A stretch of 64,000 nt of DNA, taken from contig BCKZ01000003.1 in the NCBI GenBank assembly GCA_001600815.1, positions 248,001-312,000 on the forward strand, written 5' to 3'. The translations under genes were made by a program, and so were the position numbers. The stretch is from Alloascoidea hylecoeti. Lineage: Eukaryota. Below are positions 141 through 64,000 of the stretch, piece by piece; the stretch's first letter is position 1; every line of letters begins with the position of its first letter. A model generated the notes under the pieces. The model was not told the DNA's origin, searched no databases, and was given only the letters and a program-made list of their open reading frames with translations.

Positions 141-223
141 GGAGGGTTGGCCGAGTGGTCTAAGGCGGCAGACTTAAGATCTGCTGGACGTTGTCCGCGC
201 GAGTTCGAACCTCGCATCCTTCA
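141..223 (+). tRNA. tL(UAA): tRNA-Leu(UAA), intronless, long variable arm
   Basis: GGAGGGTTGGCCGAGTGGTCTAAGGCGGCAGACTTAAGATCTG...GAGTTCGAACCTCGCATCCTTCA. It has an A box, a CTTAAGA anticodon loop, a GTTCGAAC B box and a downstream T-run. Nearly identical to the S. cerevisiae tL(UAA) sequence as I recall it. Confidence 0.97.
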
Positions 224-15739: not shown

Positions 15740-16053
15740 GGCCGCTCATCACCGAGACGCGAACACCGAGCACACACAGTTTGGCGAACCTCAAGGCGAA
15801 CACTGCTAAATTTCTGATTGCGAGTATCGAAGCGTATTTTGACGACTACGAGGAGAACTCAAAACTTTTTCTTGACTGACAAACGTATAGAGCTCATGAA
15901 CAACACAACAATCCAGGCGATCTATATGATACTGTTTAGTAAAATCACGACCAAAAAAGAACAGAAAATATGCCAAACTAGAGGCGAGAACTCAAAATCC
16001 TCCCCGGTCTAGCTCGGCCGCTAAAGTTCAAGATTTCCGAACGTATCGAACGC
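15740..16053 (+). mobile_element. MITE-like element, copy 2 (inverted relative to copy 1, outer TIR missing)
   Basis: Reverse complement of 14763-15046 with scattered substitutions and a ~33-bp insertion. Begins TA|GGCCGCTCATC. Confidence 0.7.
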
Positions 16054-16229
16054 GAAAGGTCAATAGATCTTCACCTGGGAAAACGTTTATATAACTTATT
16101 TGCAACTGTCCTAAGTCTAATTATAAATATCAAGACTTTGAGCTCATGTAATATTTGAAATTAATATTTGTGGTCGCGAATGAACACCAACGTTGTCTAG
16201 CTAGTCATATCACCATAGCCATGAGTTGC

Positions 16230-16480
16230 AGTTTCAAACGAGAGTATCCGGACCTCTGAGATATGCATAGGAAAAATTAAAGAACAGTATATCAATATCA
16301 AGCTGTGAAACAATGAGACACACAGAATGTCTTGCTTGAACTATTATTTTCAAAGGGGCCTAGCTTTAGCTTGCTATACGGTCGTCAAAAAATTGGGAAT
16401 TCATTCGCTGATCAATTTCGATTCAAGATGCAGAGCTATCTAACAAGATCTAGAGCAATATTTGTGGCGCAACCCTTCCA
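16230..16480 (+). mobile_element. Highly decayed pogo/Fot1-like transposase fragment
   Basis: Collinear remnants across frames: FKREYPDL (cf. F..RHPEL), L*NNET (cf. WNMDET), IIFKG and NWEF. Confidence 0.45.
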
Positions 16481-18499: not shown

Positions 18500-18780
18500 A
18501 GACCAGAAATCGTAAACCAAGGTTGTCGAATTTGATCACCTGGAAAGAAACTTTTGAACCCAAATTTGCAAGTAATATCTTCGTCTAAGCCCTTTCCCTC
18601 TTTCAAATAAGAGGTGATCGTCTTGGCTTCCAAGACTATTCCAAAGTCTCGTTGATGATTAATGGGACATAATGGGACATATCGCTCCTGCGATATCAAA
18701 CTTGTGAAACTCTATGATTAGCAAAAGAAATAATGAATACCCTCTTCTTCTTGAATCGGCATCATAGACCAATAATTTTA
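18500..18780 (+). mobile_element. Possible decayed pogo DDE-domain fragment
   Basis: WKETFEP (cf. WL..VFEP), frameshifted LMING-HNG-HIAP (cf. LLILDGHxSH.T), then AKE..NTLFFL..H. Confidence 0.35.
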
Positions 18781-19634
18781 GCTTTTTAACTAGTTCGTTT
18801 GAAAAAAAGGGGAGAAAGAATGTTTCAATATAAAATGGAAGTGAAATTTAACTGATAAGTAAAGCTGGAATTTGACATTTAAAAGAAGCATAAGCTTAAG
18901 GGGCGTTGATAATATAAATTTAAATGTTATTTATATTAATTAGTAATGCCATGACCAGCTGTATTTCCGAATTATGTTGAAATAAGCACTATCTTATTAA
19001 TGATTTGAGATATTAATATCAGATTATGTGACTTTTTTCAGCGACAATATCTGATCAATTTATTCTACTGTACTAACTGTGTAAATGAAATGAATATATC
19101 ATGATAATTAATATTGATCTCAGAGTGATAATTGTTATGTGCTTCAAGTAAAATTGAAATCATCAGAACATATCTAAAAGCAAAATTAACGCTTCTTTTG
19201 TATCGCTATCGATATCTATGATAAACATACATCAAAATTTATCTTTGTCTTAGGTCATGACTATTTATCAAGTAATAACATCGTAAGGATATATGAAACT
19301 GTATTTATAGCATTACAAGGGTAGGGGTATATAGAACCTCAAATTCGTTCATTATAAATGGACCTCCGTTATAAATCTTTTATATCTTGTTTTCATAACA
19401 TATTCATAGATGAATGTGGGTGCTATATGTATACAATTGGAGTTAATTATGATCATCCACAATAAGAGCTTTCTATTTAACATTCTTACTGATAGACTAA
19501 ATTATATTAATTTACTACTTTATATATTGACATATTATATAACTTGGAATACTATGATTGAAATATATAGGCCTATATTTTCCGTATACACTTATAATTA
19601 TATTTAAAGCTTGATAGAGATCGATATATTTCTA

Positions 19635-19790
19635 GAGACGAACATACTGTTGATTCATCTCACTCATCATACAATTAAGAAATCAGCTTTGTAACATAAA
19701 AGAACTATTGTTATATTATATATCCCAAAAGAACGCAACCAATTTCATAAGTGTATAACGAATGAGATGAATCAGAAGTATTCTCGTCTC
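19635..19790. repeat. 156-bp foldback/MITE-like element with 49-bp imperfect terminal inverted repeats
   Basis: GAGACGAACATACTGTTGATTCATCTCACTCATCATACAATTAAGAAAT compared with the reverse complement of 19742-19790: 40/49 matches by manual alignment. Confidence 0.7.
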
Positions 19791-22700
19791 AATATTAAAT
19801 ACTCGCAAAAATCCAGATAAGTCTCCATATTTTATTCTTTAAATAAGAATTTTTTGTTTTACTGGAAAGAAAAATAAAAAAGTTGAGGAGCAGATTTATG
19901 GGTTTAAATAGCTTTAACCTCAACCGGGTATGTTTTTTTCTTTTTCCCTCTCAGAATTAAAATCTATACTTTAGCTTTTTTACCTCTCAACGTCCGTTTC
20001 AACAATGCAACAAGTAACGTCGACAAGCTTGTATTATCAGATGACATACTATGCCTCAGACTAATGAAAGAAAATTAATGCTTAAGTAAATTCTCAAGAT
20101 GCATTGCGCATAATATCAATGAAACTTCAGAAATAAATAAAAGAAACTTAAAATTTAAGTAGTAACAAAAAATATATATTATTTTTTGTCATTAATTATT
20201 AGTTAGAAGGTGAATAAGCATGTACTAATTATAAGGAGCTTATAATTAATTATAAACAAAAGTAATCGATATTGAAGGGCAAACAAAAAGAAAGAAGGCA
20301 GCTTGAAAGGTTAAGAAATTAAAAGAATTCTTTCTTACTACTTCCATTCACAACAATCTTGAATAAATATCTTCAGATAATATACATGTATAATATTAGC
20401 CCCTCTTTTTCTTGTTTAAGGATATTGTTCTTTCTTATAAAAATATCCAATGGTTTTGAATTATAATTATAATGATCTTTAACTTTATTTGCATTCCGTT
20501 TTATAAAAATATAGTGTTGAAATATTTATAATTAATTATAAATACTATAGCTAGTGATTAATTGTAATTGTTGCAATGGTAATTATAATGTTCTGCTTCT
20601 GCACATATTAGTATTCAATGCTATTCATTAATTATAAATTAATGCATTAACATATAAGTTAGGCTCCAAAATGAAAATTACAATAAAAATAAAAGAGGGC
20701 GTAACATCTAATCGGACATTAATGCTCCTCATATCTTATAATCATCAGATTTAAATACTCTTCTAATATTACTTATTGTTATTCCGCTTAAAATATGAAA
20801 TCCCACAAGTTATTGTTCATAATTAGTCATATATTCATATGATTATTATGTTTAATTTCTACCTTGCTTTTCTTTTTCTAGATCTTAAGCTTTTATTATT
20901 AGTATTAAAGTTTAAATGCACAGCATGCAATTCTTTTGTCACTTTTGTTTTTATAAATTTAAGGAGAAAAATCCAGGATCTTTGTACGATTAGAAATTTT
21001 AACTCATGATCATTATGTTGTTTATAATTTGCAGCAGTATACATATTATATTTGAAAATCCAGAAAAGATCATCTTAGGAAGTTTACCATGTAAAATTAA
21101 GCTAATCTTTAGCTTGTGTGGTATAATAAAAATGCAAGTAAATATATCACAAAAGAGTCACAACTTGCAATAATTGGGCTCATATTCACCTTCCAGTATT
21201 TTCCGGATTCCCATATATTAATATTTCCTATTTTCCAAAGGTATATTGCGTTTTGACGTTAACTTTAGTCATGGGGTTTCCTTAAAATTCCAGGTTTTGT
21301 CTATATTTTATGGGTGATCATCATAAGTGCATGCGTGGTAAAAATCAAAGAACTTTCAGGGTAAGAAAAATAACAATCTTAATCCAATATACAGAAAAAG
21401 AAAAGATCTGGAAAGACTACTATTTTTGATCCACCAACCTTCGTTAATTATTAATCTCTAAAAATAGGCGTGTATATGCATTAAGCTCATGTAATTGTTA
21501 GAGAGACCTTTTCTTTAGATATTTAATGAGCTCCTTCGCCAGGAAGAAATATGAGCGTTTTTTGACCAATTTCAACACTAAGATTCATGATCAACATCAC
21601 AAATGCTATCCAAATCAAGACTGAGACTGCAGTAAACTTAATTATAAAATACCGTGAATTAGACCTTGAGACACCATACCTTGATAAGTATTATTAATTA
21701 CTTTCAGCATAATTTCTATATTTTAAGTTCAAAAGATATTAAAGATTGATTGATGGCCATATGCATAGATCGAGGGATATTTAAAGGTCTTTTTAAACCC
21801 TTTTATAATTAAACATTCTTGGAAAGTACTATTAATATATATTGCAATTACAATTGATATACTAATAAATGCTTTACGAAAGATTGAGAAGTTGAGTGAT
21901 ATATTTTTGTTTATTAATTTTGATCATTTGCAATATTATTGATTATATCATAAATTAATATCTATTAATATTGTTTTTAAATAATTTGGCAAACAACAAC
22001 CTATAGCCATGTAATATATAGTTAACTTTAAAATAAATCTACTAGTTACTGAAACACCCCTTTTAATATTATTGATCATGATATTCAAAAGAAGAAACAA
22101 CTCTAGATTTTCTCATATCCTAGCTACGTACACTCCCACACGCTATAACTTGTTTCACTATATATATGCTATACAGTATCTAATATCTATGTAGCGTTAA
22201 CATACTAATATATAAGGATTCATGATTATTGAATGTACACTCAATTAAGGGGTTGTTCATATCCCTCAGCAGGGAAATTTTTGTATTACTGCGCGCTAGC
22301 TGTGCAAAAGTAATCGATAGACTTATAGATAATTAACATTGATCTGGAGATCTTGTCTTATCTTTGCCCTAACAAATCTTTGGAGTAAGCCACCGGATCC
22401 ACTCCCTCCGTTTTCCTTATAAATTGACTACTTTTATCCTCATATCGCGCGAACGGTGTATAATGAGTCGGAATTAGGAAATATATAGATAATTTGCAAT
22501 TAACCTTGAACAGGCTTAAGCATGTAACTAACCGTACAAAGTTATAACCTTGGACATACCAGATTTGGTATAACTTGGACAGGCTTAAAACATATAACTA
22601 GTAAATATATGGAGGGTTATAACCTTTAAATATATAGCTGATAGCTATCAAACAGCTAACTTGAGGTATATGATTATACAAGATATGCACATAGATTTCT

Positions 22701-23853
22701 CGAATAGTTTAAATATTTTGGAGCAACCAAGTTGCAATATTCATCTCTAGCATTGCAGGTATTTATTGTCTGGGTGTATTTGGGGTTTGATAATAAGTAA
22801 ATTTATTTAAAGACTTTACTACTTCGATTGTATTTATAGCCATTGGCTGGCCATGGTTCACCTGACATTGTTTGATGCCATTATTAACAAACTGAACGTT
22901 TTTTTTCTCCGTCAATTCTTTTATTAAATGCCTTGTTTTGTTCCTCTACTTTTCTACAATAAGGCAACATACATCTTCAAACAATTTCAATTGTATTAGA
23001 CGAATTTTACGTACTGTTGTCCCTTTTCAATGTTAAATTGACAATGTTTTTGGTCCATCCTATGCACTGGAAAAATATGAATGCCGCATGTTCTGCGCGG
23101 TCTGATACTTGCATTAATATTGATATTACTTACATAGGAGGATCTGGCTAATAGTGTAGGTATAGGTTGGGGTGAAAAAATTCAATACCATTGAAAAAAT
23201 TTAACCGCGTCCTAATGGGGAAAAACCAAAATATAGACATGGTTTTATTATAACCATATTCAAAACTCTAAACAATTACGAAGCTAGGCTATTTATATAT
23301 AATTATAATGCATTGTTCACTTTTATTTTTAATATCTATAACGTATTAAATTACTTCTCTATGTTTTTCCGATCTCTTGAGACTTTCTATAATCAAAGTA
23401 ATTCGAGGAAACAGAAAAAGTAATCCCTGTATATCATACAAGTGCAGTAATATCAAACAGTAAACTCAAAATTTAATCGTAGACTAACTTCTAATTTGGC
23501 ACCTATATAGGGATATCACAAATCTGAGAAATATCATAACATCGAAAGTGAACATGAAATTTACCTTCTTATTTATAAAATCTGTTCTTCTATTTCATTT
23601 AAGAATTATTACTGATTACTTATCTAAAACATATAATATTAATATTCAATTGCAATCTTAATGCAAATATAAGTAGGTTTAAGCTTTATATATTTAGATT
23701 TAAAATTTCTTTAACTACGTTTGTAGCTAAAATAAAAACAATAACAATGGTGGTAAGTTAAATAACAATGTGGACTGGTCGATCTATCTCTCTTATTTTT
23801 ATTCGTTTGGATTGACCTAAACTTGACCCTCTACTACATTGGGTACTAATATT

Positions 23854-40117: not shown

Positions 40118-42090
40118 TTACCATGTCTGTGTTTCTTCAAATAAGTCAACTCTTCCTTTACATTCAGATAAGTGCTTAGTTACTGAGTTTCTGATTGTAT
40201 CTGAAAAGAAATCAGGTCCACATGTTACAATACCAACAGATCCAGCACTGACTTTAAATTCCTCGTAGATGATTCCATCAAGATTTGGTCTTCCTTTTAT
40301 TAACTTTATATAAGGAAACTTTGCCCCGACTGTTTCCCAGAGATCTGAGGAACCGGAAGATAATCTTAGATGTTCAATACCTTTGACATCTTTGCTGTCA
40401 CAGAAATCGAAACCCTTTTCTGAAGTTGAAGAAGAATCATTAAATGAAATATTACTAGATGGTGTCTCATTCCCCCTTGTTACGTAGATATGAGTAGAAA
40501 TCTTGCTACTATTAAGTCTTTCCAACTCTTTATAAATCCATCCAAAGGTGGTGAAGTGACGAATTACCCAAACAAGTACAATTCGTTGATCTCCAACTTG
40601 TCGTTTACTAAGAGCCTCAGCGTTACAAATACCAGTTGGGATTCCATGACCAGCTGTGAATATAAGAGCTGAATCGTATTTCTCAAGAGGAGCTCTCGAA
40701 CCATATGGGCCTTCAATTAACACATTCAATGAAGCAAAATGATTAGGCTGTTTNNNNNNNNNNNNNNNNNNNNNNNNNNNNNNNNNNNNNNNNNNNNNNN
40801 NNNNNNNNNNNNNNNNNNNNNNNNNNNNNNNNNNNNNNNNNNNNNNNNNNNNNNNNNNNNNNNNNNNNNNNNNNNNNNNNNNNNNNNNNNNNNNNNNNNN
40901 NNNNNNNNNNNNNNNNNNNNNNNNNNNNNNNNNNNNNNNNNNNNNNNNNNNNNNNNNNNNNNNNNNNNNNNNNNNNNNNNNNNNNNNNNNNNNNNNNNNN
41001 NNNNNNNNNNNNNNNNNNNNNNNNNNNNNNNNNNNNNNNNNNNNNNNNNNNNNNNNNNNNNNNNNNNNNNNNNNNNNNNNNNNNNNNNNNNNNNNNNNNN
41101 NNNNNNNNNNNNNNNNNNNNNNNNNNNNNNNNNNNNNNNNNNNNNNNNNNNNNNNNNNNNNNNNNNNNNNNNNNNNNNNNNNNNNNNNNNNNNNNNNNNN
41201 NNNNNNNNNNNNNNNNNNNNNNNNNNNNNNNNNNNNNNNNNNNNNNNNNNNNNNNNNNNNNNNNNNNNNNNNNNNNNNNNNNNNNNNNNNNNNNNNNNNN
41301 NNNNNNNNNNNNNNNNNNNNNNNNNNNNNNNNNNNNNNNNNNNNNNNNNNNNNNNNNNNNNNNNNNNNNNNNNNNNNNNNNNNNNNNNNNNNNNNNNNNN
41401 NNNNNNNNNNNNNNNNNNNNNNNNNNNNNNNNNNNNNNNNNNNNNNNNNNNNNNNNNNNNNNNNNNNNNNNNNNNNNNNNNNNNNNNNNNNNNNNNNNNN
41501 NNNNNNNNNNNNNNNNNNNNNNNNNNNNNNNNNNNNNNNNNNNNNNNNNNNNNNNNNNNNNNNNNNNNNNNNNNNNNNNNNNNNNNNNNNNNNNNNNNNN
41601 NNNNNNNNNNNNNNNNNNNNNNNNNNNNNNNNNNNNNNNNNNNNNNNNNNNNNNNNNNNNNNNNNNNNNNNNNATGTACATCGGTTGCATTAAATGTTGA
41701 ATCAGAAGAATCAAGTAAGTACTTAGATGAATTCACATAAGCAGAATTTAAATCATCATATGTAATATTAATACCATAAAGAGGACAATTTTTAACCGCA
41801 ATACCAAAAGCACTCTTGATAAAACTTGATTCTACAACATCTGCATGTTGATAAACACAAGTAGAAAATGAACCAAGTGCTGGAACAGAAGAACAAGTGC
41901 ATGCCCATTCGGTTGTATTAACATTACAATCAAAAGTAATGCTACTAGAAGCATAATAACAAGCTATTCCTAATATTTCACCTTCACCATAGTTATATGC
42001 TCCCAAGACGGGTGCAGAGTTTGTGATGAGTAGTAGAATTGTTAAAAATGTTAAAGGACATTTTTTAATTAAATATTCATATAATTTCAT
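40118..42090 (-). CDS. Ferric/cupric reductase (FRE family), copy 1, interrupted by an assembly gap
   Basis: The N-terminus (41674-42090) and C-terminus (40118-40753) are near-identical to the intact paralog at 44083-46326. Motifs 'EGPYG', 'GHGIP', 'CGP' and the terminal 'EETQTW'. Confidence 0.88.
40754..41673. other. Assembly gap (920 N)
   Basis: Run of N inside FRE copy 1. Confidence 1.
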
Positions 42091-42155
42091 TTTTTGAATG
42101 ATTTTTTAAAGAAATAATTGCAATATTGATTTGATTTATAGAATATTGCAATTGT

Positions 42156-42245
42156 GTTATTAACCAGAATAACTTATAATCAGAATTAAAAGTATATAAT
42201 AAGCAAAATATAGTCACTTGTATCTGTTATTAACCAGAATAACAG
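42156..42245 (-). promoter_or_regulatory. Two CUGG-loop stem-loops (SRE-like) in the FRE copy 1 leader
   Basis: Minus-strand GTTATT-CTGGTT-AATAAC at 42156-42173 and 42226-42243. The second stem extends to 8 bp. Confidence 0.6.
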
Positions 42246-44082
42246 CCAAGAATTAAATTTAAAGTTCAAAATAAGGATTATCGTTGAAATTTGAGAAAAT
42301 CCCAGGTTTATATCTCATAAAATGATATAATAATATGAAACACAGTAATCGTTATATAATCAATTATGCTTTCTAAGCTGATACACAATATTTTCGTTTA
42401 GTGGAATGATTAATATTGTATGTATTAATTACATAAATTATAAAGACCAAGAAGTTAAATATGCCTGAATGGGAAATTTTCTTTTGGGCCCTATATAAAT
42501 TCCTACATAAGATTTGGAATTTGAAACCGTTTGATATCGTTTAAGTTAGTAGTTGCAGTTGCGATATTTTTGCATGGTCTTAGATTTCCAAAATAAGACT
42601 TAGATCACTTTTAATATAGCTAAGGTATTCCGCTCCGATACGTATTGTTGAGAATAGCTTGGCGGAAATGGATGACGGATCGGAAACTGGAAGAACTGCT
42701 GATGACAAAGATTACATTGCCCTTTGAACTATTACTCTATTATCTATTAAAAGACATCTACATACAACTATAATATGATTTATCAATACTATCACTGTAA
42801 TTATACATATATATGGCATAGCCTTAACAACAAAATAACCCCAATTTGCTGGACTTAATATTTATAATATAAAATATAAAGTTTATATAAGTTATATAAG
42901 CTATTAAATATGAATATATTTAATGCCCCACTACGATCTAGAAGTCAGCACACAAATAGTCTGTAGTTTTAATCTACTAGAGAAATGGGAATCGTTACTT
43001 AAGCTTAAGCGCTTGGAACTTTTTAATATTTGTGACAGAATTCGAAGGATATGTAACTTATTTGCATAATGATATATAAGTTATATACCAGAACAATCAA
43101 ATTGCTACAGAATTCATTATTAATATATAACAAGCAAGAAATTTTAAAACCTATCTACATGTTGATTAGCTAATAAATATAGAGATGAAGCTTAAGATAA
43201 TTTACTTTGTCACAAATAAAGTACGAGAACAATTCAAACTGTCTTAAAAATTAGTACCTTTAATTATTATAATTATATGTTTTAAATATATCCACCCATA
43301 ATAATATACAGATTCGTATATGCATATGTGTCGGTGACACTAAACACGGAGAAGTCGAGGGGGGCAATGCATACCTATACTTATTAGTAATTTATTACTA
43401 TCCGTCTAACACAGATAGTGGGGAATGATTAGCTAATAATAATTAATTTATATTTATTTTAGAAAAACCCCAGGAAAGAACACAAATTTTTATAAAAGAA
43501 CGAAAAAATAACTCTTATCTTTTCTTCAAATTATTTTGAAGTCAGTTGATTTCCAATTCCTTCGTACTGCCCCTTCTTGACAGAAAATGAATGATATTAG
43601 ACTTCCATTTCTGCATTTTTATTGTAGCGTATGTGGTTCCATATTATTGCTTAATTGGATTCTACTCTATGTCTATACTCAAAAGAAACTCTACAGTATC
43701 AATCGCCTCACAAGGTGAAAGGACTCTAAAATTTAAAGATAGATGATTAATACAGAATGTAGTTCTCGAAAGAAATTAACATTGATTAATATTACTCTTT
43801 TTCAAATTCTTGTAATTATAGTTGCGTTCATCAGCATGTATGGCTGTACATGTAAGTCGTAAATACCTCACGATCGAATGAAGTAACATGAAATAAATAT
43901 GTTTTATGTTCATAACTAATAATAAATACACAAAAAAAAGAAATAAATTCCAAGTTTCTAAATATATAGTCTATTAACGTGCTTCAGTTTTTAAAATAAG
44001 CAAAATTTAATCAAATAATCTGTCTTTTTGTGGTGAAAATATCAGTTATCATTTCAACACCTAATCAAAAAAAAAAAAAAAA

Positions 44083-46326
44083 TCACCATGTCTGTATTTC
44101 TTCGAATAAATCAACTCTTCCTTTACATTCCGATAGGTGTTTAGCTACTGAATTTCTAATTGTATCTGAAAAGTAATCAGGCCCACATGTTACAATACCA
44201 ACAGATCCAGCACTAACTTTAAATTCCCCTCTAACCATCTCATCAAGATTTGGCCTTCCTTTTATTAAATTTATATAAGGAAACGTATCTTCCATTGTGT
44301 GCCAAATATTTGAGGAATCTGAAGATAAACTTATGTTTTCAAAATCCTTAGTGTCTTTACCAGTACTAGATTTATCACCATGATGGAAACCCTTTTCAGT
44401 TGAAGAAGAATCATCATTAAATGAAATATTACTAGATGGTGTCTCATTTTCTCTAGTTACGTAGATATTAGTAGTGATCTTGCTACTATTAAGTCTTTCC
44501 AACTCTTTATAAATCCATCCAAAGGATGATAAATGACGAATTACCCAAACAAGTACAATTCGTTGATCTCCAACTTGTCGCTTACTAAGAGCCTCAGCGT
44601 TACAAATACCAGTTGGGATTCCACAGCCAGCTGTTAATATAAGAGCTGAATCGTATTTCTCAAGAGGAGCTCTCGAACCATATGGGCCTTCAATTAACAC
44701 ATTCAATGAAGCAAAATGATTAGGCTGTTTCGCCAAATATTCACCAATCTTTTTAGTCATTCCACCTTTCATTTTAAAACAAATAACAATATCCTTATCG
44801 TTCTTATCATAAGCAGACATTATGGTGAATGGATGAGATTGCCAAAAACAATTATGTCTCATAATATAAATATAAACAAAAGATCCAGGACTTGGTTTCC
44901 AAGAAGAAGGTCTCCTAATTGTAACCTTAACTGTTTCTTCCTTTTCATAAAGTTGGAATGATGCTTTAGTAGTTATTCCAAACCATAATAATCTTGTTAC
45001 TCTAATCAAATGATCAAAAAGCCAAATTCCTATTGAGACATAAAGATATTCTAACCATCCAAATAAACGGCTATGGTAAAAACAAGCGACCAAAAACAAA
45101 GCAGCTAAAACAGCATGCATTATTTTAAAAACTTCATAACGCTTAATACGATATTTGTAAAGAGCTTGAACAACTATTATAATTCCAAGAACCATTGCAG
45201 TAATAGCAAATCTAAAACGTTGTGTTTGTGCTAATATTCCAAGAACATTATATTCATTATTTTCCAAAACTATAAATACATAACAAATTGAATGAATTAA
45301 TGCTTGAGCCGTCATACCACGAGCAATCCATTTATGGAAAACAATAAAAGATTCAAATTTAATTCCAGTTAGCCAAAGTAAAAAGTTATTTCTTCCTGCA
45401 AATAAAAATATTAATGGGAGATGAGCAAATGAAAGGATTCCTGTTCTGTCACCTACAAACTTTTGTATCATCAGTGGTTTGGTTGAGAAGTTTACCTTTG
45501 GTATAAATTTTGCTGTGATTTTTTCCTCATCAGTTAGTTGAAGAATATCGTAGTTGCATGCAGTAAGAACAATTAGCAGAATCAAATAACCTATCAAGAT
45601 TATCGTATGTGCTCGAATTGGTACCAACATGATATTCCCTAAAGAGCCAATATGTCTTTTTCTGCCTGTGGCTGGAAGTGTTATATACTTTCGGAAAAGA
45701 TTAACAGTTTCGTTTTGAGTACTCATCATAAATNGAGGAAATACTTTTCTAAGGAAAGTCAAAATTGATGATACAATTAAAACAAGACCCCAATAAGCTA
45801 ATATTATTCCACCATAGTAGTCACCTTTATCATATTCATTATAGTAAGTTTTATATACACGAGCATATAAATTTTCTGTCTTATTACTGATTGAAACCGG
45901 TGAATAATGTACATCGGTTGCATTAAATGTTGAATCAGAAGAATCAAGTAAGTACTTAGATGAATTCACATAAGCAGAATTTAAATCATCATATGTAATA
46001 TCAACACCATAAAGAGGACAATTTTGAATTGCAATACCAAAAGCACTCTTGATAAAACTTGATTCTACAACATCTGCATGTTGATAAACACAAGTAGAAA
46101 ATGAACCAAGTGCTGGAACAGAAGAGCAAGTACATGCCCATCCTGTAGTACTAGCATTACAATCAAAAGTAATGCTACTAGTAGCATGATAACAAGCTAT
46201 TCCAAGGATTTCACCTTCACCATAGTTAAATACACCTAAGACGGGTGCAGAGTTTGTGATGAGTAGTAGAGCCACCGTTAAAAAAGTTATAGGACATTTT
46301 TTAATTAAATATTCATATAATTTCAT
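44083..46326 (-). CDS. Ferric/cupric reductase (FRE family), copy 2
   Basis: 747 aa. Signal peptide and Cys-rich ectodomain, 'AGRNN', heme His residues in 'FHKWIAR', 'LIHS' and 'MHAVL..FYHS', FAD motif 'WQSHPFT', NADPH motifs 'EGPYG', 'AGCGI' and 'CGP'. Confidence 0.96.
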   Translation of the reverse strand: MKLYEYLIKKCPITFLTVALLLITNSAPVLGVFNYGEGEILGIACYHATSSITFDCNASTTGWACTCSSVPALGSFSTCVYQHADVVESSFIKSAFGIAIQNCPLYGVDITYDDLNSAYVNSSKYLLDSSDSTFNATDVHYSPVSISNKTENLYARVYKTYYNEYDKGDYYGGIILAYWGLVLIVSSILTFLRKVFPXFMMSTQNETVNLFRKYITLPATGRKRHIGSLGNIMLVPIRAHTIILIGYLILLIVLTACNYDILQLTDEEKITAKFIPKVNFSTKPLMIQKFVGDRTGILSFAHLPLIFLFAGRNNFLLWLTGIKFESFIVFHKWIARGMTAQALIHSICYVFIVLENNEYNVLGILAQTQRFRFAITAMVLGIIIVVQALYKYRIKRYEVFKIMHAVLAALFLVACFYHSRLFGWLEYLYVSIGIWLFDHLIRVTRLLWFGITTKASFQLYEKEETVKVTIRRPSSWKPSPGSFVYIYIMRHNCFWQSHPFTIMSAYDKNDKDIVICFKMKGGMTKKIGEYLAKQPNHFASLNVLIEGPYGSRAPLEKYDSALILTAGCGIPTGICNAEALSKRQVGDQRIVLVWVIRHLSSFGWIYKELERLNSSKITTNIYVTRENETPSSNISFNDDSSSTEKGFHHGDKSSTGKDTKDFENISLSSDSSNIWHTMEDTFPYINLIKGRPNLDEMVRGEFKVSAGSVGIVTCGPDYFSDTIRNSVAKHLSECKGRVDLFEEIQTW

Positions 46327-46380
46327 TTTTAAAAATAATTTTCAAAGAGATAACTCTAATATTGATTTATTGAATGTTGT

Positions 46381-46526
46381 GTTATTTGCAACAATAACTT
46401 TAAAAATGAACGATAGAAGATACAGGTAATCAATTGTTCGTTATTAACCAGAATAACCTAAGATTAGAATTAAAGTAGCGATTGAAAGAAAGAGGTAGCC
46501 AATTGTGTATTATTAGCCAGAATAAC
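46381..46526 (-). promoter_or_regulatory. Three stem-loops (two with CUGG loops) in the FRE copy 2 leader
   Basis: Minus-strand GTTATT-GTTGCA-AATAAC (46381-46398), GTTATT-CTGGTT-AATAAC (46440-46457) and GTTATT-CTGGCT-AATAAT (46509-46526). Confidence 0.6.
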
Positions 46527-48821
46527 AACAATGAGCTGATTTAGATATGGCCATGTAAATTGAGAAAATGTCTCGTTTATATATCATAAAAGAGAATATT
46601 AATGAGAATGCGATATATCGATATGAAACTCATGATCAGTGATCATATGCCTTCTTATACGACTAACACCTTCCTTCCGAAGTGGAATGATTATGATATC
46701 GACATATATTGTTACATGTTATATATATGAAGGTCCCCGTTAAATCTGTCTGAATGGGTAATTTTTCTTCTGAGGCTCTATAAATAAATTATAAGCTTTC
46801 TAATTATAAATTTGAGACTCTTAATTATAATGTTTAATATTTTTTGTAACGATCACAATTTCGATGTTGTAAAAGTTTAAAGGTCTTAGATTTCCGGAAT
46901 AGGACTGTATAATTAATATTATTCCGCTCCGATATTGTAGCATGATATGTTTACGAATACTTTGATCAGCTACACTACAATTTTTAATTTCATAAATACA
47001 TAACATATGTGCAGTATATAACTATATAGCTAGTGATTGAATAAATATACGTAACACCCCGAATATATTGCCTAACTTTAAAGCAATTAGAATCAATGGA
47101 AATAGTATTGCCCAATTGAAGTATTAGGGAATCGTCAAAATTAGCTTGGAAACTTATAATGCATCGTAATTTATTTGTGTCAAAAAAATTTGATGTTACT
47201 TCTTTGCATATTCTATTATTTGATAAGCTTACTAATTTAAATATACATAGGTAATAGGTATGTTAGATGTATGGATCCTTATTTTATAATATTATATAGG
47301 TCTATATCAATATCTCTACAAGATTTTGTTTAATATTTGGTTGAATAATATCCTGAAATGTGTAAGTAGTATAATATATAGTTATATACTACTATCTTTG
47401 GCAACATGGCTAGTGTTTAAATATATCTAGAAATAACCAGACTAGTTATCACTAACCGCTATAGCTATATTTATATACACCAGTAGTTTTTACATTTTCA
47501 CATGTTAAAGCATCAACTAGTCATACAACAGAGTAGTCAATTGGTCTCAAGGGATTAGCTATCGATATCTATAACGCTTTAATTAAAGACTATCCCTATA
47601 GATATCTGCATATACTATATAATAATATATGCAGATAACCAGTTGGAAGCTTAAAACACCTCGTACAAAAATGTCTTATGATTAATATTGAACACATTTA
47701 CATTATTGATAATATCCTTATAATATTTTCCAAGAAATATAAATAATACAGATGACTATATGACTAAATATATGGAAATTGCTATTAACACACTTACAAC
47801 AAAATTTCCAGCAAAAAGAACTTGCAATTGTATAAATTGATTACAAATATATTCTCCGGCCTAATACTAAATCGGACATGTGTTCATCATACGATGCATA
47901 CAAGCGTAAGAACTCACACCATTGTAACTGAAAAAAGATTCTTTAAATTAAACTAGATGAAACAGTCCTTCAAACAGTTCAAAAATTCTAATGCGTGTAC
48001 TATATCGAACTTTAAATTTGAAGTAATTGGTCTTGGAACTAATGACTATATATTCTTTTATTAAAAACGTTCGCCAAACTGCAAAGTTGTTTTGATGGAA
48101 TAGTGTGACTGTTCTGTCAAGTTCTAGATACCATTATATATGGACTCGAAGCTTCGATATTAATGTTCTGTTTTGTAGACCTACCAGTAAGAAAGAGTAC
48201 TACATAATTATATACATACATGTATGTATAATGCCTGTTATCATATTAATTATAAAGAAAAATTATAAACATTAATTGTAGGTATAACTTATACATGTAT
48301 ATGTATAGCTGTTGTATGAGAATAAAAGAAATTTCAAGATACCACAAACGAAAACAAATATTTTTCAAAGCTTAAGTCTTACGAATTTCGAAATTTTTAA
48401 GAAATGAATTCTCAGGTTAAATTAAGAATTAAAAGTAATTCATTTAACCTAATTTTATTTTAAATTACTTTTCAGTGTTCACGCGTGTCCTTTACTTACT
48501 GTATCGTAAACTCTACCGAAACTGGTACTGGTGAGTCTGTGACCCTTAAGCTTGGTATAAGACCTTAGATATCAATCCTAGTTAAATGTAAAATCTGCAG
48601 GTCTCGGTAAAATATACGATCGTGTAATTGCTTTATATGGTAACCGGCAGCACGGCTAGTTACACACTTACCATTTATTTGTTATACCGTATACGCTATA
48701 AGTTATATAATTATAGCTAAGTATTCAAATACCTTAATTTATTCTTACTTGTCCTTATCAATATACATGTGCTTATACCTTACGCCTACAAATAAACCTC
48801 GTATTTAATATATAATTTTCT

Positions 48822-50126
48822 TCACTTCTCCATAGACATTGGTGCGAAATCATATATAACAGGATGGTTAGTACCCTTGACAAACGCACAATTCCCCATA
48901 TCGATCTTCTTAACATCGGTTTCAGGTCGAATATCAAAATCAAATATATCCATTGGTAAACCGATTGTGGTACATGAATTTGGAATATCTACTATACCTG
49001 CAACATGGCCCTCAATTGGAGCCGTTGATAATAATAAATAAATCTGATAATCATTGTATCCATAACGTCTCAAATATTCAATAACCCTAATACAAGTCTG
49101 TCTGTATGCGACCGTGGTATCTAAAAACTTTTGTTTACCATTCTCATCAACAGAAAATCCTTCAAATGTTAAATATCTACTTGGGCCATAATGATTCTCG
49201 ACATCACCTGCAATATACATTGGTGACTTAAGTGATAGTTTCTTCATGCCACCTTTAATAACAGAACACGAAATAGTGATGCAACCTGCCATTTCAATAG
49301 CTCCACAAAATGAAATTTCACCATCTCCCTGTGAAAAATGTAAATCTCCAAGTGACAGTTTTGCGCCTGGAACATAAACAGGCAAATAAACTTTAGATCC
49401 TCTCCCAAGATTCTTAATATCACAATTTCCACCATTCTCCGGTCTCCCAGGAATAGTTCTCGCTCCTTCTTTTGCTATTTTTGCCGACAATTTTTCATCT
49501 GCAGATCCAGACCATGCAGATTGTTCAATTGGCAAAAGAGCAGGAATAACATCTTTTTCTTCGGGATCTGAACTAGTAGCAAAGATATTTACAAGTTCAG
49601 TTTCTCTCTTCATCCATTCGGCAAGAACTTCGGCGTTTGGAGCAGTACCAATTATTCCAGGATGAATCATACCAGTAAACTTGACATGAGGAAGATGTCT
49701 TGATGTTGCATGAATTCCTTCGAAATCGAATACTGCTTTTGCAGCTTCAGGATAAAAACGATCCAAGAATCCACCACCATTTTGCTTGTGAAACACACCA
49801 CAGTAACCCCACGGTTGTCTTTCTAATGGTTGAACGTCTTTGATTTCAACAACTAGAACATCACCAAGTTCACTATCTTCAATGTTAAACGGGCCAGATA
49901 GGTAATGAATTTTTGTCAGATCTGCTTCTTTTATATCATCTGCAAAATCATTGTTTCCAACTTGATTTCCAGTCCAGTCAAGGCATTCTATCTTAACTGT
50001 TTCCCCTTGTTTTATAGATTCCGAAAACGGGACATCTGGGTGCCATCTATTATGGACTTGTGGTTGCTCACCACCAGGGATTGTGAGATCAATCTTTGTT
50101 GCATAACGAATTGGATGTTTTCCCAT
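48822..50126 (-). CDS. fmdS: Formamidase (FmdA/AmdA family)
   Basis: Motifs 'HNRWHPD', 'ECLDWTG', 'HYLSGP', 'ARTIPGRPENGGNCDIKNL' and 'GDLHFSQGDGEISFCGAIE'. Confidence 0.95.
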   Translation of the reverse strand: MGKHPIRYATKIDLTIPGGEQPQVHNRWHPDVPFSESIKQGETVKIECLDWTGNQVGNNDFADDIKEADLTKIHYLSGPFNIEDSELGDVLVVEIKDVQPLERQPWGYCGVFHKQNGGGFLDRFYPEAAKAVFDFEGIHATSRHLPHVKFTGMIHPGIIGTAPNAEVLAEWMKRETELVNIFATSSDPEEKDVIPALLPIEQSAWSGSADEKLSAKIAKEGARTIPGRPENGGNCDIKNLGRGSKVYLPVYVPGAKLSLGDLHFSQGDGEISFCGAIEMAGCITISCSVIKGGMKKLSLKSPMYIAGDVENHYGPSRYLTFEGFSVDENGKQKFLDTTVAYRQTCIRVIEYLRRYGYNDYQIYLLLSTAPIEGHVAGIVDIPNSCTTIGLPMDIFDFDIRPETDVKKIDMGNCAFVKGTNHPVIYDFAPMSMEK

Positions 50127-59732: not shown

Positions 59733-60827
59733 TTAAACTGATTTACTGGAAAATTCTTCATCTTCAACATCTTCCACAGAAGGTTGTCTACTAAGATTTT
59801 TAGCAGAATCATTACCTGAAACGGACATAGTATCTTCAGCTGAAGGTTCGGATTCAGTACTATTGGAAATGCCATTAACAATGTCCCAATTATCTTCTGG
59901 ATCATCTAAATCTTTTTCTGAATTTGAATTATTATTGTTACCTTCTTGAGTTATTTTTGTTTGGTAAATATCATCATCATCATCATCATTATCTTCTGAG
60001 GTTGAATTTGTCATTTCTGCATATTCTAACTCTTCAACTTGTCTTTGATCAACGATATTGGCATCTTGATTCTGTTGTATGAGAGAAGCTGGTTCTGTAT
60101 CGACTACAGGCCCTGATTCAAGAATAATACGCCGTTTCTGCTTCTTAACTTCTTTTGCTTTTGGAAAATCTATTACCAACAATCCATTGTTAAATTTAGC
60201 AGTAACTCCTTCGTCATCAACCTTGACATCTTTTGGAACTCTAACAACTCTTTTAAATTTACCATATGATCTTTCTGAAATTTTTAAAATTGCATTTGGA
60301 TCAGAAGATGATCTTGGAAGAACACCGTATACTGTTAAAGATTGTAAAGAAGGTTCATAATCAATATTTATATCATTTTGAGATACACCTGCTAAAGAAA
60401 TATAAATAGTATATGATGATTCTGTTTCATAAGCATCCAATGGGGGAGAAACGGTTTTGATGTTGTAACTTTTAACTTTCTTTGATTTAACATTACTAAC
60501 ATCAACTTTAGGCCCAGTAGATGTCTTTTGAGCATGCCTGTGGTTTGGCTTTGTGAAATTGGGCTTTGCAATTGTTGCAAAAGCTTTCCTTTCTCTAGAG
60601 TTGTTAACCTTACATCGAGGAACATTAACATTGTCAAATAAGAAATTAAGTGTACGTGGGGAGAATGATTGATCATCTGTATCATTATTAGAACCCTGGC
60701 CAAATAATCCAGACAAGATGGACCCTAAATTTTCTTCGGATAATTGTTGTTTCTGTTGAGATGAGCATTGTCTGAATCCGGCAGCAGAGGATAAAAATTC
60801 ATCAAAAGGGATTTGAAATGTGGTCAT
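59733..60827 (-). CDS. HSP42: Small heat shock protein with N-terminal extension and acidic tail, Hsp42-like
   Basis: Alpha-crystallin domain 'SPPLDAYET', 'SLAGV', 'SERSYGKFKRVVRVP' and 'AKFNNGLL', with long flanking low-complexity regions. Confidence 0.75.
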   Translation of the reverse strand: MTTFQIPFDEFLSSAAGFRQCSSQQKQQLSEENLGSILSGLFGQGSNNDTDDQSFSPRTLNFLFDNVNVPRCKVNNSRERKAFATIAKPNFTKPNHRHAQKTSTGPKVDVSNVKSKKVKSYNIKTVSPPLDAYETESSYTIYISLAGVSQNDINIDYEPSLQSLTVYGVLPRSSSDPNAILKISERSYGKFKRVVRVPKDVKVDDEGVTAKFNNGLLVIDFPKAKEVKKQKRRIILESGPVVDTEPASLIQQNQDANIVDQRQVEELEYAEMTNSTSEDNDDDDDDIYQTKITQEGNNNNSNSEKDLDDPEDNWDIVNGISNSTESEPSAEDTMSVSGNDSAKNLSRQPSVEDVEDEEFSSKSV

Positions 60828-61387: not shown

Positions 61388-61521
61388 CTTATCCTATCTG
61401 TTTCTTTTCACGGGGTATAATATACGGTATAATAAATCATTGCATATAAGTATAATCTAAAATTATTATAAGACATCGGGAACTTATCATGATCAATGTT
61501 CTCTGATCAGACAGTGATAAG
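61388..61521. promoter_or_regulatory. GATAAG cluster (nitrogen GATA-factor sites) upstream of OPT
   Basis: CTTATC at 61388 and 61483, GATAAG at 61516. Confidence 0.5.
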
Positions 61522-61621
61522 GATATCTTCATTTTATACTTATATATATAGTCAAAAGAATACCAGAATTTTAACAACAAAAATTATTAAACTGGGTCCA
61601 TGTTCGGTCATCTTCATCAGA

Positions 61622-64000
61622 ATGCCTATAACTAATATTTTCAATAGGTTCAAAGCCACCAGACTTATAGATGGCCATGTTGAATCAATAGATGGCATTC
61701 CAAATGATTACTTGAATAACTCAACTTCAAAAAAGAATGAAATTGACAACAAAACTCTTGGTCCCGAAGTAATTCAAAACGTTTCAGATGATGAGGAAGC
61801 TAATATAGACAAATCAGCAGTTCCTATTTATGATGCAAATACTATTATTGACGAATCCTGTGATGATGCACCATATCCAGAGGTAAGAGCCGTAGTTAGC
61901 CCATTTGACGATCCTTCCATGCCCGTTAATACTTTCCGTGCCTGGTTTCTTGGAATTATTTCTACAATTATTGGATCGGGCGTAAACCAGTTTTTCAGTA
62001 TGAGATATCCAAGTGTTACAATTACATCATTAGTCTGTCAATTAGTATCATATCCAATTGGACAAGCTTTTGCATCAATTTTTCCAATGTGGACTTTCAA
62101 TTTTGGACGTTTGGGTAAATTTCAATTAAATCCAGATCGAAAATTCAATGTTAAGGAACATACTTTAATCACAATTATGGCTAATATATCTTTCACCTCC
62201 GCTTGGGCTACAGATATTATCCAAGCACAGGTAAAATTTTATAATAGACCTGCTCCAACTGGATTACAGGTATTAATGGTTATCACCTGCCAATTATTTG
62301 GTTTAGGTGTTGCTGGTCTAGTTGATGATATTTTGGTAAAACCCTCTTCTATGATTTGGCCAAGTACATTGGCTAATGTAGCATTATTTGATTCTATTCA
62401 TTCAAAAGAAAATGCTCAAGTAGACGGTTGGAAAATCACCAGAATTAGATTTTTTCTTTATGTATTTATTGGATCATTTATTTACTACTGGCTTCCCGGT
62501 TATATTTTCACAGCATTATCAACATTTGCTTTTATTTGCTGGGCTGCTCCTGGAAATATAGTAGTAAATCAAATATTTGGGATGCAACAAGGTCTTGGGT
62601 TATCATTAGTAACTTTTGATTGGGCACAAATTGCTTATAATCTATCACCAATTTTAACCCCTGTTTGGGCACAATTAAATGTCGTTGCTGGATGGATAAT
62701 CTTTTTTGTTATTCTTCCTCCAATACTTTATTACAAAAATAGTTTTTATTCGGCGTATCTTCCAATGTCATCTTCAACTGTATATGATCATTATGGTAAT
62801 GAATATAATGGTTCAAGAATCATTGATGCTAATGGAAAATTTATCCTGGAAAAGTATAAAGAATATTCTCCTGTATTTCTTTCCGTAACATATGCCATTA
62901 GTTATGGATGTTCTTTTGCTGTTTTGACTGCTGGTCCTGTTTATGTATATTTACAATACGGTACGGAAATTTGGAGTGCAATTAAAGGTTCCGGGAAAAA
63001 AGATATTCATGTTCGATTAATGGAAAGATATAAAGAAGTTCCGAAATGGTGGTATATTTTGTTAACTTTACTTGTCTACGTTGTTACTATTGTTATAATG
63101 GAAAAATATCATACTCAGTGGCCTGTCTGGGGTATAACTTTAGCGTTAGTAATGGTTCTTATTTTCATTTTACCAATTGGTATTATTTATGCAATCACAA
63201 ATACAAATACTAACTGTATGACTGTTCTTGGTCAAATAATTTCTGGTTATGCCCTTCCTGGATTGCCAATTGTAGCCCTTACATTTAAATTTTATGCGTA
63301 TACTGGCATTTCACAAGCAATGGCTTTTAGTCAAGATATGAAGTTAGGTTATTATATGAAAATCCCCAAAAGAAGTTTATTTTGGGCTCAGTTCATTTCT
63401 TGTGTTCTTGGTGCACTGGTTCAAGTTGGTGTTTTAATCTGGATGTTTGGAAATATTAGTGATTTATGTGATACTGATCAGTCTGATGGGTTTACCTGTC
63501 CCCAAGGACGTACCAATTTTGCAGCTTCGGTTGTTTGGGGTGCTGTTGGACCATCGCGAACATATGGAGTTGGTCAAATCTATTCTGGATTCTTACATTT
63601 ATTTTGGATAGGTGCTTTACTACCTATTATAACATACTTTCTGGCAAAAAGGTACCCAAACAATATTATTTTGAAGAATTTGAATTGGGTTGTTTTATTT
63701 GGTGGTACAGGTAATTATCCACCAGCAACTGGTATCAATTATGCTTCATGGGCTTGCTTTGGTTTATTTTTTAATTACTTTGTAAAAAGAAAATGGGGCG
63801 CTTGGTGGTCTAAATATGTTTTTGTAATGAGTTGTGCTTTAGATGTGGGTGTTGCTCTGGCTGGTATCATAATATTTTTTGCCCTTAGTTATCCAGGTGT
63901 TACCATAAGCTGGTGGGGCAATAATGTTAATAGTAACACAGCTGATGGTTTAGGGACACCTTATAAATCTTTACCTGAGACTGGGTACTTCGGTCCAGAT
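61622..64000 (+). CDS. Oligopeptide transporter (OPT family), 3' end beyond the window; absent from the ORF track
   Basis: Reading frame from the ATG at 61622 continues in frame to the window end. OPT motifs 'PYPEVRAVVSPFDDPSMPVNTFRAW', 'FNVKEHTLITIMAN', 'MIWPSTL', 'DIHVRLMERYKEVPKWWY' and 'QDMKLGYYMKIP'. Confidence 0.95.
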   Translation, partial: MPITNIFNRFKATRLIDGHVESIDGIPNDYLNNSTSKKNEIDNKTLGPEVIQNVSDDEEANIDKSAVPIYDANTIIDESCDDAPYPEVRAVVSPFDDPSMPVNTFRAWFLGIISTIIGSGVNQFFSMRYPSVTITSLVCQLVSYPIGQAFASIFPMWTFNFGRLGKFQLNPDRKFNVKEHTLITIMANISFTSAWATDIIQAQVKFYNRPAPTGLQVLMVITCQLFGLGVAGLVDDILVKPSSMIWPSTLANVALFDSIHSKENAQVDGWKITRIRFFLYVFIGSFIYYWLPGYIFTALSTFAFICWAAPGNIVVNQIFGMQQGLGLSLVTFDWAQIAYNLSPILTPVWAQLNVVAGWIIFFVILPPILYYKNSFYSAYLPMSSSTVYDHYGNEYNGSRIIDANGKFILEKYKEYSPVFLSVTYAISYGCSFAVLTAGPVYVYLQYGTEIWSAIKGSGKKDIHVRLMERYKEVPKWWYILLTLLVYVVTIVIMEKYHTQWPVWGITLALVMVLIFILPIGIIYAITNTNTNCMTVLGQIISGYALPGLPIVALTFKFYAYTGISQAMAFSQDMKLGYYMKIPKRSLFWAQFISCVLGALVQVGVLIWMFGNISDLCDTDQSDGFTCPQGRTNFAASVVWGAVGPSRTYGVGQIYSGFLHLFWIGALLPIITYFLAKRYPNNIILKNLNWVVLFGGTGNYPPATGINYASWACFGLFFNYFVKRKWGAWWSKYVFVMSCALDVGVALAGIIIFFALSYPGVTISWWGNNVNSNTADGLGTPYKSLPETGYFGPD

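Follow-up and report, generated by a model that had tools for sequence, protein, structure and literature searches.

Two tandem ferric reductase paralogs, FREa and FREb, carry a short palindromic element that lies past a conserved TATA block and ahead of the start codon. The element is an 18-mer that reads GTTATT-CTGG(T/C)T-AATAA(C/T) on the gene strand. It occurs in four copies, with a fifth one that has retained only the arms, and all five are found upstream of these two genes. Its existence, copy number, position and conservation are read directly from the DNA, and the comparisons described below indicate that it has clearly been preserved by selection. The most likely single reading, to which we assign a probability of about 0.42, is a dyad DNA site for a dimeric regulator. 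The present evidence is mixed, however, and the element may either dock a regulator on the DNA or form a hairpin in the RNA. The genes, the candidate leaders and the individual copies are listed here. Positions refer to the window, which is the complete 64-kb stretch of DNA that was analysed, and negative numbers are counted from the ATG.

40118-42090, minus strand: FREa, paralog of FREb, its middle hidden by a run of N (40754-41673)
42091-42315, minus strand: candidate 5′ leader of FREa, 225 nt without any ATG before the start codon
42156-42173, minus strand: FREa proximal copy, GTTATTCTGGTTAATAAC, 18-mer identical to the distal FREa copy; -83 to -66, starting 139 nt past the TATA block
42226-42243, minus strand: FREa distal copy, GTTATTCTGGTTAATAAC, GTTATT-CTGGTT-AATAAC; -153 to -136, starting 69 nt past the first T of the TATA block
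42307-42312, minus strand: FREa TATA block, TATAAA within TTTTATGAGATATAAAC; 16 of 18 positions identical between the paralogs
42627-42637, minus strand: CGGAGCGGAAT, a conserved block shared by the two promoters, roughly 540 nt before the start codon, candidate zinc-cluster (CGG-type) site
44083-46326, minus strand: FREb, complete ferric reductase of 747 aa with Ferric_reduct, FAD_binding_8 and NAD_binding_6 domains
46327-46551, minus strand: the corresponding 225 nt of FREb, likewise without any ATG before the start codon
46381-46398, minus strand: FREb proximal, arms-only copy with replaced spacer, GTTATTGTTGCAAATAAC, GTTATT-GTTGCA-AATAAC; -72 to -55
46440-46457, minus strand: FREb middle copy, GTTATTCTGGTTAATAAC, the same 18-mer as in FREa; -131 to -114, starting 126 nt past the TATA block
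46509-46526, minus strand: FREb distal copy, GTTATTCTGGCTAATAAT, GTTATT-CTGGCT-AATAAT; -200 to -183, starting 57 nt past the TATA block
46576-46583, minus strand: FREb TATA block, TATATAAA, which fits TATAWAWR

In FREb, a single N at 45734 leaves one residue unread. The N-terminal 140 aa of FREa are 88% identical to FREb, and its C-terminal part carries NAD_binding_6. The two genes evidently exchange sequence, as judged from a tract of high identity (91.6%) that reaches 46 nt into the leader and stops before the elements. The SHMT of this lineage has its closest named relative in Ascoidea rubescens (81% identity).

The earlier note on this DNA had described the element as a tandem hairpin, and its observations were borne out when the window sequence was read. 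This holds for the coordinates of all five copies and for the 8-bp stem in one of them, the distal FREa copy, where the flanks lengthen the stem (42224-42245). The distal FREb copy has one loop change outside the CNGG and one terminal stem change; as had been noted, the latter gives a G-U pair on the gene strand and an A-C mismatch on the plus strand. The fifth copy has indeed kept its stem and lost its loop, and the stretch around it is missing from FREa in the paralog alignment. For the tandem spacing, put at about 70 nt, periods of 59-70 nt were measured (70 nt in FREa, 59 and 69 nt in FREb). The strong divergence around the hairpins was found again: flanks within the repeat units are near-random, while the core agrees in 17-18 of 18 positions.

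When the window was searched for GTTATT-N6-AATAAY with at most one mismatch, 19 strand-hits were found against 4.96 expected, a number reached by none of 100 shuffles. Ten of these 19 rows are the five FRE elements, and the other nine are near expectation. The hexamers GTTATT and AATAAC occur 82 times in all within the window, and exact inverted GTTATT...AATAAC pairs no more than 30 nt apart occur four times, all in FRE leaders. In the alignment of the paralog promoters (about 610 nt, overall identity 67%) two element positions are the top two 18-column windows, with 18/18 and 17/18 identical letters; the TATA block has 16/18. The binomial probability of at least 35 identical letters out of 36 at p=0.67 is 1e-5. 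Comparison of strain contigs gave no differences in the FRE leaders, a metagenome scan for the element returned chance-level matches only, and one metatranscriptome yielded 0 contigs.

According to the proposal that we favour, the element would be a selected cis-regulatory dyad that both FRE paralogs inherited as a small tandem array. A dimeric, sequence-specific regulator would recognise GTTATT and AATAAC on the DNA, the invariant, A/T-rich arms, which form inverted half-sites 6 bp apart in 5/5 copies. The sites start 57-139 bp past the TATA block, in the zone that would be scanned by the budding-yeast initiation complex. This position makes us lean towards an operator-like repressor that would hinder scanning or promoter escape when metal is plentiful, where we infer the binding to DNA, the dimer, the sign of the effect and the link to iron or copper. 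Alternatively, the element might be a proximal activator site.

Besides its rank in the promoter alignment, an argument for a DNA site is that the arms are conserved as sequence and not merely as pairing. Across the five copies the arms comprise 60 letters with a single change, a transition at the outermost position, and there is no covariation or compensatory pair among them. In the fifth copy 4 of the 6 loop letters but 0 of the 12 arm letters differ from the other copies (P 0.005 if changes were random). Thus the arms, and not the CNGG, have been retained there, as expected for half-sites with a freer spacer. The poor folding of the stem, alone and in context, points in the same direction, as does the similar performance of both strands, which fold about equally well.

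Working protein sites at a similar distance from the ATG are known from the FRP1 ferric reductase promoter of Candida albicans, for which passages in PMC8217685 place a CCAAT at -134 and a CGG motif, the putative Sef1 site, from -164. The likeness is that a ferric reductase gene under iron control has protein-binding DNA sites (HAP complex and Sef1) at 130-165 bp from its ATG, and that the FRE promoters also retain, further upstream, the CGGAGCGGAAT block, a candidate conventional upstream control region. In contrast to FRP1, the FRE element contains neither CCAAT nor CGG and is an A/T-rich dyad downstream of the TATA block.

Several observations speak against the DNA site. No known iron or copper factor motif matches the element. 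Regular-expression scans with consensus strings, covering the 900 nt ahead of each gene, gave no Aft1-type or Mac1-type site, and matches of the GATA, CCAAT and TEA type all lie outside the element. Inside it, the consensus strings revealed no Aft1, Mac1, GATA, CCAAT, CGG or Rim101-type motif; only TTAATAA was matched, a heptamer that is Yap-like but whose centre is non-canonical. The site is downstream of the best-conserved TATA block, and activator sites downstream of TATA are unusual in yeast. Furthermore, the spacer is kept in 23 of 24 letters in the four CUGG copies, which exceeds what a free spacer needs. This spacer carries CNGG on the sense strand (chance about 0.1-0.2%), and the one stem change is compatible with a G-U pair on that strand only.

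The reading that we rank second, a possible but distinctly less probable one, is that the 5′ leader forms an RNA hairpin. Either an RNA-binding protein that is not Vts1 would recognise it, or the hairpin, stabilised by protein, would stop scanning ribosomes. Its action would be like that of the animal iron-responsive element (IRE) in a 5′ UTR, with no family tie. This reading accommodates an inverted repeat with an asymmetric, conserved loop and a stem change that gives G-U on the sense strand only, and it depends on the elements being transcribed. They are downstream of the conserved TATA block, a candidate for the working TATA box; the TATAWAWR consensus, which the FREb block fits, is given in parts of PMC7849388. 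In scanning-type budding yeasts, start sites are mainly found 50-120 bp downstream of the TATA box, according to the same passages of PMC7849388, so that the proximal CUGG copies, 139 and 126 nt past it, would fall within the transcript. The distal copies, which start only 57-69 nt past the TATA block, may however sit at or before the start site.

That both genes are free of ATG for 225 nt ahead of the start codon also suggests that the elements are transcribed, and this counts against the DNA site. Among 17 ORFs this is the second longest such stretch; in FREa an ATG is found directly upstream of the TATA block (42316-42318). From -225 to -61 there is no ATG in FREb, compared with 3 CAT (P(0) 0.05-0.07). 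In the same interval of FREa ATG is equally absent (P(0) about 0.05), but so is CAT, and thus the gap is not strand-specific there. Base composition weakens the case for a transcribed hairpin further. Across the elements the sense strand is rich in T, and in both genes it turns rich in A and poor in G only at about -65, beyond which it resembles the -60 to -1 stretch of the other 15 genes. This switch from T to A hints that transcription may mainly start beyond the CUGG copies, as the DNA site would have it.

The folding results are likewise unfavourable to a hairpin. The stem consists of five A-U pairs and one G-C pair, the loop is closed by U-A in all copies, and the G+C content of the stem is no higher than that of its surroundings. 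When folded alone the CUGG copies reach -2.5 to -6.5 kcal/mol, and only one of the four beats its shuffles. This is the distal FREa copy (-6.5 kcal/mol, z -2.45), which also has a pair probability of 0.94 in a modelled leader with assumed transcript ends at 37 C. For the other three, the energies alone are -2.5 to -3.3 kcal/mol with z of -0.5 to -1.0, and the pair probabilities in the modelled leader are 0.07-0.22, as other pairings win. Individually, and with the same assumed ends and temperature, the values are -2.5 kcal/mol (z -0.79) and 0.13 for the proximal FREa copy, -3.3 kcal/mol and 0.12 for the distal FREb copy, and -2.6 kcal/mol and 0.07 for the middle FREb copy. The arms-only copy still folds (-4.0 kcal/mol alone, pair probability 0.72-0.88 in the modelled leader), which favours a hairpin. 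The missing covariation weighs against it, and no Rfam family matches the element.

The comparison with the animal IRE/IRP system of the ferritin type concerns function only: in both, translation of an iron gene would be blocked by a hairpin that precedes the start codon and is bound by a protein. An IRE has a CAGUGN loop and a stem with a bulged C. These features are absent from the FRE element, which has CUGGUU or CUGGCU as its loop and a 6-bp stem without a bulge, and the FRE stems are far weaker. To our knowledge, no IRP-type system exists in budding yeasts.

The earlier note had gone further and interpreted the hairpins as putative Smaug/Vts1-type recognition elements (SREs), by which a SAM-domain protein would recruit Ccr4-Not and repress the mRNAs. 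We consider it unlikely that CUGG-loop arrays in the 5′ leader are read by a Vts1-type SAM-domain protein, or by a new hairpin-binding protein, and provide post-transcriptional control of the FRE genes. There is a likeness to the SREs that Smaug, Vts1 and SAMD4 read: the hairpin is short, has CNGG at the start of its loop on the mRNA-sense strand, and is present in several copies per gene. The loop opens with CUGG in all four loop-bearing copies, the sole loop change is outside the CNGG, and the low chance of CNGG at the loop start under leader composition means that the match is not trivial. Only five CNGG-loop hairpins with a Watson-Crick stem of at least 6 bp are found on both strands of the window, and three of these are FRE leader copies. 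Passages in PMC4053848 give a broad Smaug consensus of CNGGN0-3 with CUGG as the preferred and best variant, the 3′ side of the loop being untouched by the protein and N0-3 tolerated.

However, the same passages of PMC4053848 state that Smaug does best with loops of 5 nt that are preceded by a G, and for Vts1 the loop is defined more narrowly as CNGGN0-1 in parts of PMC3045596 and PMC2573929. The loops obtained in Vts1 selections were tetra- and pentaloops, and a G:C pair closed them in 21 of 23 clones, as reported in a section of PMC3045596. The 6-nt loop of the element (CNGGN2) is thus inside the broad Smaug definition but outside that of Vts1, and it is closed by U-A where SREs of 4-5 nt have G:C, a preference that is strong although not absolute. 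According to passages of the literature, Vts1 targets have their SREs preferentially in coding sequence and reviews put SREs in 3′ UTRs, and not in 5′ leaders such as the putative ones considered here. SRE stems are sequence non-specific, whereas the arms of the FRE element are invariant, and the arms-only copy has kept its stem while the CNGG was lost (GUUGCA). Weak hairpin formation is a further difficulty, and SRE-like hairpins become common once G-U pairs are allowed (18 in the window). A full-text literature search for Vts1 together with ferric reductase gave no relevant paper. Yeast iron regulation has a known layer after transcription, Cth2 (Tis11) acting through UUAUUUAUU in Saccharomyces and Candida glabrata, but it is different: its element is linear, AU-rich and located in the 3′ UTR rather than being a hairpin, and UUAUUUAUU is absent from the FRE element. 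In C. glabrata the motif is also found in iron-uptake transcripts, according to passages of PMC5082906.

It is quite improbable that the repeat unit belongs to the core promoter, where its A-rich 3′ arm, AATAAC, and a pyrimidine-purine step would provide start-site context and the array would set the point of initiation. The distal copies are inside the 50-120 bp zone, AATAAC is followed by A in 3/5 copies, and scanning yeasts favour start sites at which a pyrimidine-purine step comes after a run rich in A (stated in parts of PMC7849388). This proposal is purely inferential, leaves the dyad symmetry and the conserved spacer unexplained, and does not fit the proximal copies at 126-139 nt. A functionless relic, i.e. 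a leader segment that was recently duplicated in tandem and copied with the gene and has not yet decayed, would account for tandem periods in paralogs that exchange sequence, but is very improbable given a conserved core amid near-random flanks, a conservation P of about 1e-5 and a high-identity tract that ends short of the elements.

Iron uptake is poorly mapped in yeasts outside Saccharomyces and Candida, and the lineage analysed here has been little studied. As the element fits none of the known iron or copper factor motifs, it would mark an as yet unassigned control step for the ferric reductase pair. Being short, repeated and sharply bounded, it makes either reading simple to check. Should it act as a dyad DNA site, it would define a regulator site that is unusually placed, between the TATA block and the start codon. 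Should its action be at the RNA level, it would represent the first case in which a hairpin controls iron uptake in fungi, and, if this works via the CUGG arrays, a fungal functional counterpart of the animal IRE/IRP switch that is built from different parts.

The two ferric reductase genes FREa and FREb form a head-to-tail pair, encoded by the minus strand of this budding-yeast window, which is A/T-rich (G+C about 0.32) and whose SHMT has its best named-protein relative in Ascoidea rubescens (81% identity). The features considered here are:

44083-46326, minus strand: FREb, complete, with the domains Ferric_reduct, FAD_binding_8 and NAD_binding_6
40118-42090, minus strand: FREa, broken by a run of Ns at 40754-41673
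42156-42173, 42226-42243 and 46440-46457, minus (gene) strand: three copies of the 18-nt dyad, GTTATTCTGGTTAATAAC
46509-46526, minus (gene) strand: distal FREb copy, GTTATTCTGGCTAATAAT
46381-46398, minus (gene) strand: arms-only fifth copy, GTTATTGTTGCAAATAAC
42307-42312, minus strand: TATA block of FREa, TATAAA, kept in both paralogs
46576-46583, minus strand: TATA block of FREb, TATATAAA, kept in both paralogs
141-223, plus strand: tRNA gene, the sole Rfam match at gathering score in the whole window
2296-2850, 59733-60827, 48822-50126 and 61496-64000: two Hsp20-family genes, a formamidase/acetamidase and an OPT oligopeptide transporter

FREb shares only 43% identity with its best homolog in the protein collection searched. 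In FREa, the 920-N run masks the central portion, with the transmembrane and FAD parts; outside this run FREa and FREb are 87-92% identical. Single Ns occur at 16806 and, within FREb, at 45734. A tract of 91.6% identity (41674-42136 vs 45907-46371), which comprises the 5′ coding part of the paralogs and 46 nt of leader, looks like gene conversion and stops short of the dyad elements. Elsewhere in the window, about 12 kb (11500-23800) are devoid of stop-to-stop frames of at least 120 aa, which is unusual in a compact yeast genome. A large inverted repeat (14759-15048 vs 15738-16057; 148 nt at 98%, 689 nt between the inner arms) lies within this stretch, for which a centromere-like structure and an element bounded by terminal inverted repeats are both conceivable.

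All five copies were found on the gene strand where the earlier note had placed them. For the fifth, it had reported a kept stem and a lost loop, and indeed four of the six loop letters but none of the 12 arm letters differ from the other copies (P 0.005 for four changes placed randomly among 18 positions). The proposed tandem unit of about 70 nt corresponds to copy-to-copy distances of 70 nt in FREa and of 59 and 69 nt in FREb. When the degenerate pattern is searched with at most one mismatch, the 64-kb window yields 19 strand-hits against 4.96 expected, a number reached in 0 of 100 shuffles; the five FRE elements account for ten of these rows, which leaves nine, a number near expectation. 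The arm hexamers total 82 occurrences, and exact inverted pairs within 30 nt are confined to the FRE leaders in this window. The element was not found upstream of the Hsp20-family, formamidase/acetamidase and OPT transporter genes.

The upstream regions of FREa and FREb align with 67% identity overall. The best two 18-column windows of this alignment are the element positions (18/18 and 17/18; binomial P about 1e-5), ahead of the TATA block at 16/18. The earlier note had called the inverted repeat the best-conserved part of the unit, and its observation is confirmed. Within the repeat units, no more than about 45 nt can still be aligned, extending from a TTTAATTC-like piece on the 5′ side of the core to a CANNTG piece on its 3′ side. 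The element is therefore real, has sharp limits and is under selection. No RNA run is among the 10 listed as containing the sequence, and one metatranscriptome yielded 0 contigs. DNA contigs of two sequencing runs match the window without any difference over 42060-44212, those of one run also over 46301-46900; the second run is without cover at 46434-46595. There is no polymorphism in the covered FRE stretches of these contigs. A metagenome scan with the 18-mer gave at least 120 single-match loci. Among those listed, none resembles the window (blastn) or the reductase (tblastn), and these are chance matches.

The elements start 69 and 139 nt (FREa) and 57, 126 and 185 nt (FREb) downstream of the first T of the TATA block. 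From its phylogenetic position, we take the Ascoidea lineage to belong to the scanning group of yeasts. In budding yeasts except Yarrowia, transcription starts mainly at 50-120 bp from the TATA box, on its downstream side (PMC7849388); by this rule, each gene should transcribe its proximal CUGG copy, with the distal copy being borderline. The 225 nt upstream of either FRE are devoid of ATG, and of the 17 ORFs in the window only one has a longer ATG-free stretch; the probability of zero ATG in -225 to -61 is 0.045-0.075 per gene. In this interval FREb has three occurrences of CAT, the antisense equivalent; the gap is strand-specific only in this gene, because CAT is absent from FREa as well. 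In both genes the sense strand is rich in T between about -250 and -75 and does not become rich in A and poor in G until about -65, where its composition matches that of the last 60 nt before the other 15 window genes. A T-to-A switch occurs at yeast start sites, and its position at about -65 speaks against a long leader. On balance, we consider it rather probable that at least one CUGG copy per gene lies within the mRNA, in a candidate 5′ leader. In each paralog the conserved TATA block is overlapped by a WGATAW motif (42313-42318, at -225; 46581-46586, at -260), and a GATA-type iron repressor acting on the TATA box is conceivable.

Our tentative preference, with a probability of about 0.4, is that the element is a candidate DNA site of a dimeric regulator, resembling an operator. 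Invariant A/T-rich arms at fixed spacing, a change at an edge position, one copy with a different spacer and a stem that is not selected for G+C are the traces that a dimeric DNA binder would leave. In the ferric reductase promoter FRP1 of Candida albicans, as described in PMC8217685, protein sites (CCAAT at -134, a CGG motif beginning at -164) work at similar distances from the ATG. A free spacer does not explain why four copies have kept their spacer almost perfectly. Neither Aft1-type (consensus from PMC5082906) nor Mac1-type sites occur in the 900 nt upstream of either FRE. Matches to GATA, CCAAT, Rim101-type and TEA-type motifs lie outside the element; the only one inside it, TTAATAA, is a heptamer of Yap-like type whose centre is non-canonical. 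None of the known iron/copper factor motifs scanned in this way fits the element. The paralog promoters also keep blocks upstream of the TATA block, which are likely to be conventional upstream control sites:

42400-42640 and the aligned part upstream of FREb: kept blocks CGGAGCGGAAT (42627-42637), GGAAATCTAAGACC, the CCCATTCAG block and TAATCATTCCACT, with TEA-type CATTC cores within the last two

The next alternative, an RNA hairpin that is read by some other protein or blocks scanning, appears unlikely on its own. As isolated 30-mers, the four CUGG copies fold with -2.5, -6.5, -2.6 and -3.3 kcal/mol, and the 8-bp copy is the only one that differs clearly from shuffles (z -2.45; 5 of 200 equally good); the opposite strand folds about equally well. 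In modelled leaders, with ends assumed at about 30 nt past the TATA block and at +60 of the coding sequence, their pair probabilities are 0.94, 0.13, 0.12 and 0.07 at 37 °C (0.94, 0.17, 0.22 and 0.08 at 25 °C), and that of the arms-only copy is 0.72-0.88. The stem consists of five A-U pairs and one G-C pair, and compensatory changes were found in none of the copies. Its sole change, a terminal transition, does give G-U on the mRNA strand and an A-C mismatch on the other, as had been noted; by itself this is a 1-in-2 event. Stem extension was discarded as a sign of selection, with two of five copies extended, which is about chance level. An Rnt1 AGNN loop, a Cth2 ARE, Nrd1/Nab3 sites and a leader intron, judged by eye, misfit or are not common to the copies. 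Rfam gave only a chance-level mir-92 row (E 0.66) at 41900-47000. The most stable hairpin of the modelled FREa leader is the 12-bp core of a 22-nt inverted repeat (42106-42127 / 42142-42163, 82% complementary), which is present only in FREa, just downstream of the proximal element.

The earlier note had read the copies as Smaug/Vts1-type hairpins (SREs), which we now regard as improbable. Smaug, as described in PMC4053848, recognizes CNGGN0-3 loops, with CUGG as the best variant, 5-nt loops performing best, G preferred 5′ of the loop and the 3′ side of the loop untouched by the protein. For Vts1, PMC3045596 gives a stem of at least 4 bp and a tetra- or pentaloop CNGGN0-1, closed by a G:C pair in 21 of 23 selected clones, and a review places SREs in 3′ UTRs (PMC9893680). 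The FRE hairpins carry the four CNGG letters on the sense strand but differ in their 6-nt loop, their U-A closing pair and their putative 5′-leader position. The match is not trivial, since CNGG at the start of a given 6-nt spacer has a chance of about 0.1-0.2% under leader composition, but it is post hoc. SRE-like hairpins with stems of at least 6 bp number 18 on both window strands if G-U is allowed (four are FRE copies) and five with Watson-Crick pairs only (three are FRE copies). The fifth copy, having changed its loop and kept its arms, argues against CNGG as the selected feature. Both coding sequences contain a sense-strand hairpin with a CUGGAUC loop (44197-44217 and 40232-40252), whose 7-pair stem, nearly all G-U, is probably too weak to matter. 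In the parts of the open-access literature covered, no description was found of fungal ferric reductases controlled by a hairpin or by Vts1.

A start-site context element is quite improbable, and a relic even more so.

Taken together, the RNA readings remain a minority view that comes close to the DNA reading. Whichever molecule carries it, the element is, from its conservation between the paralogs, a genuine cis-regulatory dyad that selection has maintained in the FRE pair. As a DNA site, its position downstream of a conserved TATA block would fit a repressor better than an activator.
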